Part shown: positions 19,615-19,960 of the stretch, piece by piece
Layout: each line of letters begins with the position of its first letter
Position numbering within the stretch: position 1 is the first letter of the stretch
Assembly (NCBI GenBank): GCA_019058275.1
Contig: JAHLVW010000082.1
Span: 1-30,216 of the forward strand
Direction of reading: 5' to 3'
Length of the DNA: 30,216 nt
Source of the DNA: Candidatus Heimdallarchaeota archaeon
Lineage (GTDB): Archaea > Asgardarchaeota > Heimdallarchaeia > JABLTI01
Notes under the pieces: generated by a model
Told to the model about the DNA's origin: nothing
Databases searched by the model: none
The model's input: only the letters and a program-made list of their open reading frames with translations
Program-made: the position numbers and the translations under genes

Positions 19615-19960
19615 ATTTGAGTAGTACTATGATAGCAGCTAAACACCCTAGTACCTTAGAGGGTTCAGGGTTTGAAAAAGGGTTTGAGTGCTACTATAGT
19701 AGCAGCATAACAATCAAGGCTTCAATTGCTAAATTAGAGCTCAATCTGTTTGAGTGGTACTATAGTAGCAGCATAACTTATATGTGTCCAGCGGACACAA
19801 AATACTTTCGGTTAAGTGTTTCGTGGGGAAACACTCAGGAACCTCCTCCTAGGTCTTTTTCATAAACAAGAAAATGGCAGTAATTCTCGCAGCCATCAAT
19901 AATTGATTTCAGAATTCCTTTTCCAGACAAGTTTGAGTAGTACTATAGTTGCAGCTTACC
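19615..19960. repeat. Four-copy 30-bp interspaced palindromic repeat (CRISPR-like mini-array, no cas genes in the window)
   Basis: Copies at 19615-19644, 19682-19711, 19748-19777 and 19931-19960; consensus GTTTGAGTAGTACTATAGTAGCAGCATAAC with 1-5 mismatches per copy; unique intervals of 37, 36 and 153 bp. Confidence 0.85.

Follow-up and report, generated by a model that had tools for sequence, protein, structure and literature searches.

Mini-CRISPR arrays have been described in SPV1 and SPV2, viruses of Saccharolobus (PMC6858448), and those carried by phages have been reviewed (PMC11656645). Here we describe a locus in the window, that is, the whole 30,216-nucleotide contig C77 of the Heimdallarchaeota assembly G000 (4.12 Mb, 118 contigs). 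It resembles these systems in being a short array on a mobile element whose assembled ends show no cas gene, with a repeat related to that of the host and a spacer from another element of the same host. It differs from them in that the repeat is only 63–70% like that of the host (9–11 mismatches to the type I-B repeat) and has neither the 3′ tag nor a host-like leader, in that one of its three spacers is 153 bp long, and in that the matched element belongs to another family than the carrier. The mini-arrays of Chiyouvirus, from Bathyarchaeia, are also close: likewise borne by an element from archaea of sediments, they have three spacers set between four repeats, and the second array is also one without identified targets (PMC10541130). 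However, the repeat of array 1 is identical to that of the host, the virus encodes a Cas2-like protein, and in the accessible part of that account an oversized spacer is not reported (PMC10541130).

The regulatory mini-arrays CreA/crlRNA share degenerate type I-B-like repeats with this locus, but those consist of two repeats, lie within or close to cas loci, and have a seed match with a PAM in the promoter of a cas or toxin gene (10.1101/2023.03.03.530964). No such seed match and PAM were found here, the array lies on a different contig from the cas genes, and it is no CreA/crlRNA unit. Seed matches to cas or element promoters did not rise above background, the best runs against the cas contigs (9–10 positions) being equal to those that random 36-mers give. 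Nor is the locus a Racr unit, in which one repeat alone mimics the crRNA of the host, as it has four repeats with spacers and a diverged handle region. A Racr or CreTA role, raised by the first-pass annotation, is therefore disfavoured by the number of repeats, the distance from the cas genes and the background level of the cas seed matches. Lastly, the neo-CRISPR arrays of Nivala et al. 2018 are similar in that, in what the citing source relates of them, they grew from a repeat-like site and the crRNA tag was dispensable (10.1101/148544). Those arrays were of E. coli type I-E and made by an overexpressed integrase, whereas the present array is natural, archaeal, of the type I-B family and on a mobile element, with a founder site that is not recoverable.

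By analogy, the array would work, or would have worked, like the virus-borne mini-arrays of inter-element conflict (PMC6858448, PMC11656645, PMC10541130). We do not assign it to the mini-array class, since its repeat is not identical to that of the host. Its unusual features are a tag-less repeat and a 153-bp spacer with an identified donor family, and what is new is that this interval can be traced to a family of elements with ParB-like and PCNA genes. We found no comparable long-spacer case in the literature, which is weak evidence of novelty.

Four repeats at a single locus

The first-pass annotation had described four 30-bp repeats separated by intervals of 37, 36 and 153 bp, and its coordinates proved exact (Table 1), as did a perfect 16-bp palindrome in copy 2 (19689–19704), which is imperfect in copies 1, 3 and 4. 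The intervals had also been called unique; this holds within the window, but the 153-bp interval has a homologue elsewhere in the genome, on contig C95. The repeat copies differ from each other at 1–7 of 30 positions, with a single difference between copies 2 and 3. When copy 2 was used as the query, the other three copies were recovered at 1, 5 and 7 mismatches and no further site with fewer than 8 mismatches was found elsewhere in the 4.12-Mb assembly, leaving the four at this locus as the only copies genome-wide. Moreover, a detector of degenerate three-copy arrays with a 60–75-bp period, run genome-wide, picked out six sites, of which three were host CRISPR arrays, two were apparently protein-coding repeats and one was the present locus. 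A chance origin of the repeats is ruled out.

Folding of the whole locus gave z = −3.05, for the most part a reflection of pairing among the palindromic repeats, and spacers 1 and 2 showed no unusual structure. The sole match in an Rfam scan of the window was a tRNA, outside the array. At the end of spacer 1 (19667–19687) there is a repeated 9-bp word that includes the first six repeat bases, possibly a trace of slippage or microhomology.

Table 1. Coordinates of the array and of the features around it, as positions in the window.
Feature	Position	Strand	Remark
attL core TGCCCT, left junction of integrated element	19341..19346	+	empty site in G004 and in sediment runs
Left part of integrative element	19347..30216	.	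cargo, DUF4258/YgiT, AbrB-like, primase/helicase-like module
Non-coding stretch before repeat 1, candidate leader	19347..19614	+	32-bp motif at 19424–19455
Repeat 1	19615..19644	+	20/30 to host I-B repeat
Spacer 1, 37 bp	19645..19681	+	target search empty
Repeat 2	19682..19711	+	20/30 to host I-B repeat; centred 16-bp palindrome
Spacer 2, 36 bp	19712..19747	+	target search empty
Repeat 3	19748..19777	+	21/30 to host I-B repeat
Giant spacer, 153 bp	19778..19930	+	captured piece of ParB-like/PCNA element family
Repeat 4	19931..19960	+	19/30 to host I-B repeat
SF2 helicase remnant	19989..20600	+	last ~205 of 728 codons (28%), ends in winged helix

The array is cargo of an integrative element

A mobile-element setting had been suggested from the sequence and was confirmed, the array lying in an integrative element with an attL. 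In the same-genus genome G004, the host gene that ends at 19296 is followed by TGCCCT and then by a YhbY-like gene. The downstream host DNA of G000 sits on contig C20, behind a second TGCCCT located 63 bp from the gene of a 475-aa tyrosine integrase. The empty site in G004 and this second TGCCCT thus identify the first one as attL. Four public sediment runs were also available; they come from at most two studies, and one run may be the source sample. X1 and X5 contain ends of the empty site at 19346, and X3 and X4 bridge the filled junction. Judging from the empty site, C77 and C20 would be the two ends of one element, with the right end and the integrase on C20 and a middle that is not assembled with either contig. 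Between attL and the array lie 268 bp of the element. No cas genes were found in the assembled ends, and profile searches for Cas1, Cas4, Cas6 and RAMP proteins matched other contigs but neither C77 nor C20.

The similarity of the non-coding stretch before repeat 1 to the host leader was not significant, with 6.3% of random windows scoring equally. Its 32-bp motif is identical at 30/32 positions in a related element of genome G007 (L027:6753–6784), which is shorter and shares with the carrier both this motif and three genes in the same order; the motif is also present in two contigs of run X5. The array repeats are absent from the G007 element, and array-type repeats are also absent at seven further integrase loci, five of them homologous and two paralogous. 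Since the related element does without it, the array is cargo and not a required cis-site, and the iteron or centromere sites offered by the first-pass annotation as an alternative lose ground through the same absence. One neighbouring element has a homologue in a Heimdallarchaeota MAG.

Downstream of the array, the helicase remnant lacks its 5′ part, which is absent from the assembly, and is interrupted by an in-frame TAA at 20316–20318 that was confirmed in contigs of runs X1 and X3. An intact 728-aa ResIII/Helicase_C homologue (41% identity) is present on other metagenomic contigs, and nucleotide similarity to the helicase homologues starts near 19975–19989, 15–30 bp after repeat 4. We rejected a native helicase origin of repeat 4, as the homologues match only 2–5/15 across the repeat. 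The adjoining gene had been proposed as a wHTH binding partner of the repeats. It is instead a truncated helicase with an internal stop, and its sequence points to a deletion scar rather than a dedicated winged-helix regulator. A second, independent solo C-terminal remnant of this helicase family occurs in another metagenome (L061:438–812). Beyond the remnant, positions 20619–21781 of the window hold a divergent DUF4258 gene and a YgiT/MqsA-finger gene, a toxin-antitoxin-like pair for which no link to the array was found.

The repeats descend from the host type I-B family

All of cas6, cas8b (TM1802), cas7, cas5, cas3, cas4, cas1 and cas2 are found on contig C26 of the host, followed by a leader of ~110 bp and then by an array whose 30-nt repeat ends in ATTGAAAT. 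By its gene content the host type I-B system is complete. Contig C68 continues an array of this type. The spacers of the 30-nt arrays are 36–39 bp long with one exception of 47 bp (C68 near 4303–4349), meaning that the host sometimes takes long spacers, and 16/18 of the I-B repeats are identical. The remaining host arrays, on contigs C4 and C76, carry a second repeat type of 37 nt, against 30 bp at the present locus. On C4, two short arrays of this type (1–270 and 2134–2500) flank two non-cas genes, and the first and last repeats of the second array are degenerate. No targets of host spacers were found, and therefore a host PAM is not derivable.

A CRISPR origin of the locus, as first proposed, is upheld by this complete system with its related 30-nt repeat and 36–39-nt spacers. 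Compared with the host repeat, in register and on the plus strand, the four copies show a family likeness of 19–21/30 (Table 1), against 19, 19, 18 and 17/30 for copies 1–4 on the minus strand. Per position, a match of 21/30 has a background chance of 2e-6 and one of 19/30 a chance of 6e-5, and about a dozen chance sites in the genome are equally close to the host repeat. A profile was built from five I-B-family repeats of the class; with it, positions 1–22 of the copies scored +12.6 to +17.6 bits on the plus strand versus −4.8 to 3.4 on the minus strand, and the tag (the last eight bases) scored −5 to −13. The clear score of positions 1–22 shows that, in plus-strand orientation, the repeats descend from the I-B family of the host.

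All five family repeats retain at least 7/8 tag bases. In this array the 3′ tag ATTGAAA is lost from 4/4 copies, which keep 2–4/8 bases on the plus strand, and in copies 2–3 it is replaced by AGCATAAC. The end of the minus-strand repeat, ACTCAAAC/T, is nearly invariant and resembles the host tag at 5–6/8 positions, a likeness that arises partly because the family repeat is half-palindromic. The minus-strand reading of the first-pass annotation is therefore doubtful: descent favours the plus strand, although the minus strand has the better 3′ tag and could still be the functional one. Several differences from the host repeat are common to all four copies, so they either pre-date the multiplication of the copies or have been homogenised. 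Seven positions at the 5′ end and a GCAGC block are invariant across 4/4 copies. Set against a type I-B array, the locus has the family repeat of ~30 nt with 35–39-nt spacers, the 153-bp interval being the exception, but has neither the 3′ ATTGAAA(N) tag that serves as the crRNA 5′ handle nor a leader and cas genes beside the array.

The 153-bp interval derives from another element family

The 153-bp interval aligns to C95, a contig of the same assembly, over its whole length and ungapped at 128/153 positions (84%). The match runs from the first base after repeat 3 through to repeat 4, while the left flank agrees with C95 at only 7/30 positions, and aligning run X1 to the window left these boundaries unchanged. 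Bases 24–153 of the interval match L092, from another metagenome, at 118/130 positions (91%). The first 36 bases match C95 at 33/36 and the last 36 bases match L092 at 33/36. Of the two hairpins in the interval (19783–19799 and 19815–19835) the first is common to C95 and the second to L092, which makes the donor a third family member. The first five bases of repeat 4 match the donor continuation at 4/5 positions, in both C95 and L092. The interval comprises the last 32 codons of a donor gene (minus strand, 19835–19930) and the region upstream of a ParB-like gene. Genes of the C95 element family include this ParB-like gene (weak PHROG hits, Atlas 0.91), PCNA and DUF4326. Relatives occur in four other datasets, and contigs C37 and C40 of the same assembly are likewise members. 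By their sequences, C37, C95 and C40 are probably pieces of one unassembled mobile element; they align in order along L092.

Foreign DNA between two CRISPR-like repeat copies is the mark of spacer integration, and what is anomalous here is its size. The alignments show the interval, which has a repeat on either side, to be DNA from a different family of mobile elements. The link to inter-element conflict that had been suggested is thereby strengthened, as interval 3 originates from another element, although it alone among the three spacers matches another element of the host. The C95-type element and the carrier occur in one assembly and both are in run X1, and the C95 target has mismatches in either seed of an interval-3 guide. 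The donor flanks (CGG on the plus strand or ATC on the minus strand) are uninterpretable as a PAM, none having been derived from host spacers. Against C95, the codons of the interval show 6 synonymous and 5 non-synonymous changes, 21% synonymous being the neutral value, and the changes private to the interval (3 + 3) do not suffice to tell divergence within the donor family apart from drift that followed the capture. These private changes amount to 6/96 (~6%), and repeats 3 and 4 differ at 4/30 (~7% per copy); the drift of repeats and insert is thus at a similar level, on small numbers.

In the donor family, which belongs to this class, a hairpin that varies and, next to it, a 14-bp motif that is fixed lie in this order just upstream of the ParB-like gene (L024:1747–1814, L026:9564–9596, L092:7228–7262, L095:9951–9984, and two copies in C95). 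C95, C37, L092 and L095 all keep this hairpin-motif unit, with compensatory changes in the stems, and by its sequence it is a candidate parS-like or regulatory site. The hairpins, which give the interval the look of a structured RNA, need no role in the array, because the donor family itself conserves them, with covariation. The first 63 nt of the interval gave a folding z of −3.35.

Spacers 1 and 2 yielded no target in their own genome, IMG/VR, metagenomes, phages or plasmids; two 20-bp viral matches were rejected as they did not extend. Searches with the repeat patterns gave no match in viral, metagenome and genome collections, and all six matches of a looser viral scan were unrelated. Repeat and array searches in 83 genomes of the class and 400 of the phylum gave chance matches only. 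No second copy of the array was found in the collections searched and no other spacers across the four sediment runs.

Origin and present state of the array

We give an even chance to the reading that this is a small orphan array, made by CRISPR-type integration, carried as cargo at the left end of the element and by now most likely a decaying relic. The founder 30-mer would already have been tag-less and would have been copied at every integration, as the host-repeat differences common to all four copies suggest. It may have been a true repeat that had drifted, or else an off-target site that resembled a repeat (a neo-array). Host Cas1–Cas2 would have carried out three integrations; in one of these a 153-bp fragment would have gone in untrimmed, perhaps closed at one end by 5-bp microhomology, and a later deletion would have fused the array to the tail of the helicase gene. 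Integration relies on the leader side and on inner repeat motifs, and the last eight bases serve Cas6 and Cascade. With its first 22 bases kept and its tag lost, the repeat could hence have taken spacers without giving a normal crRNA. We propose that the copies drift because a transcript that lacks the tag would give no normal I-B crRNA. Signs of decay are seen in the copies, which differ by 1–7 bases against 16/18 identical repeats in the host, and in the adjoining gene, which is truncated and has a stop. On the other hand, the invariant 5′ positions and GCAGC block could reflect selection rather than common descent, and the unassembled middle of the element could hold a cognate protein. Usual Cas1–Cas2 spacers reach about 70 bp without Cas4; as 153 bp is far beyond this, we only infer the integration step. 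On the sequence evidence, the array probably records a clash between elements and has probably now lost normal guide function. Of the guide cassette first proposed, then, the CRISPR origin survives, while the lost tag and the surrounding decay argue against function.

How the 153 bp arrived bears on a tentative variant, somewhat unlikely in our judgement, in which the array was made by CRISPR but this interval came by recombination and not by a single integration; it fits either functional state. Two ordinary spacers from the same invader, ~80 bp apart, may have become joined through repair on invader DNA, with the middle repeat replaced, or a one-sided integration may have been closed by microhomology at repeat 4. 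Recombination predicts the sharp ends seen at both repeats and the 4/5-base microhomology between the donor continuation and the start of repeat 4 in C95 and L092, and spacer gain by recombination has been proposed for leaderless phage mini-arrays (PMC6858448). However, the first route requires that a single 153-bp window supplied two spacers in the same orientation and that a double crossover took place within arms of 36 bp, the insert holds no trace of a lost repeat, and a 4/5 match is expected by chance in ~3% of cases. We regard as unlikely, and a little more so, that the array is a live guide cassette, transcribed and borrowing host Cascade or an unseen cognate effector so as to cleave or silence the ParB/PCNA element. 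Transcription would run on the plus strand from 19347–19614, or on the minus strand, where the ACTCAAAC end would serve as handle; the target of the giant spacer would be the stretch before the ParB-like gene. The ends of interval 3, each 33/36 to the rival element (C95 and L092), the presence of both elements in one assembly and in run X1, and the nearly invariant minus-strand tag with its 5–6/8 host likeness are all in keeping with such a cassette, and known mini-arrays act in this way (PMC6858448). Yet the repeats of known mini-arrays are host-identical (PMC11656645), not 63–70% as here; the plus-strand tag is at 2–4/8, a host-like leader is absent, the ~30 bp between repeat 4 and helicase DNA leave scant room for a minus-strand leader, the C95-type element persists in the assembly with mismatches in either seed, and spacers 1–2 are without a target.

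We think it improbable that in these Asgard archaea a Cas1-type integrase writes fragments of at least 150 bp into tag-less repeats of mobile elements and that the array acts apart from normal crRNA; if true, it would mean an extended guide or the capture of a cis-acting site of a rival element. That the captured cis-element itself acts, the insert titrating a protein of the rival as a decoy or serving as a structured RNA, is very improbable: the conserved hairpin-motif unit with its compensatory stem changes (C95, C37, L092, L095) and the folding of the first 63 nt (z = −3.35) would suit it, but the hairpins are inherited from the donor and need no function in the array, and the insert is a single occurrence that also contains an arbitrary 32-codon gene tail. 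Least probable of all is that the repeats are DNA sites bound by a dimeric protein, be they iteron, centromere, recombinase or operator sites, and are CRISPR-like in looks only. The loop-less palindrome in copy 2, the nearby attL and the variation among copies could be read in this manner. Against it, the copies are in exact 30-bp register with the host repeat and have I-B spacer lengths, just one copy has a perfect palindrome, foreign DNA separates copies 3 and 4, the neighbouring wHTH is the tail of a dead helicase, and such sites are missing from the G007 element and from the five homologous and two paralogous integrase loci.

Read as the product of CRISPR-type integration, the locus would be sequence evidence that Asgard mobile elements used CRISPR-type capture against one another. 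A natural repeat-bounded spacer of about four times the usual length bears on the size strictness of Cas1-Cas2(-Cas4), and the locus also bears on how arrays begin at non-canonical sites, with a value limited by its being one, probably decayed locus without sister arrays for comparison.

Two kinds of related-looking sites were seen in other genomes. Unrelated low-GC prophages (L121:5358–5490, also L123 and L126) carry three degenerate repeats with a 50–51-bp period and a similar palindromic core. Three same-genus genomes each contain a lone type I-B-like repeat whose 3′ tag is intact or nearly so (L111:1502–1530, L112:1515–1544 and L113:1510–1539). These are possible solitary repeat units, and that of L111 lies after a cas6-looking gene.
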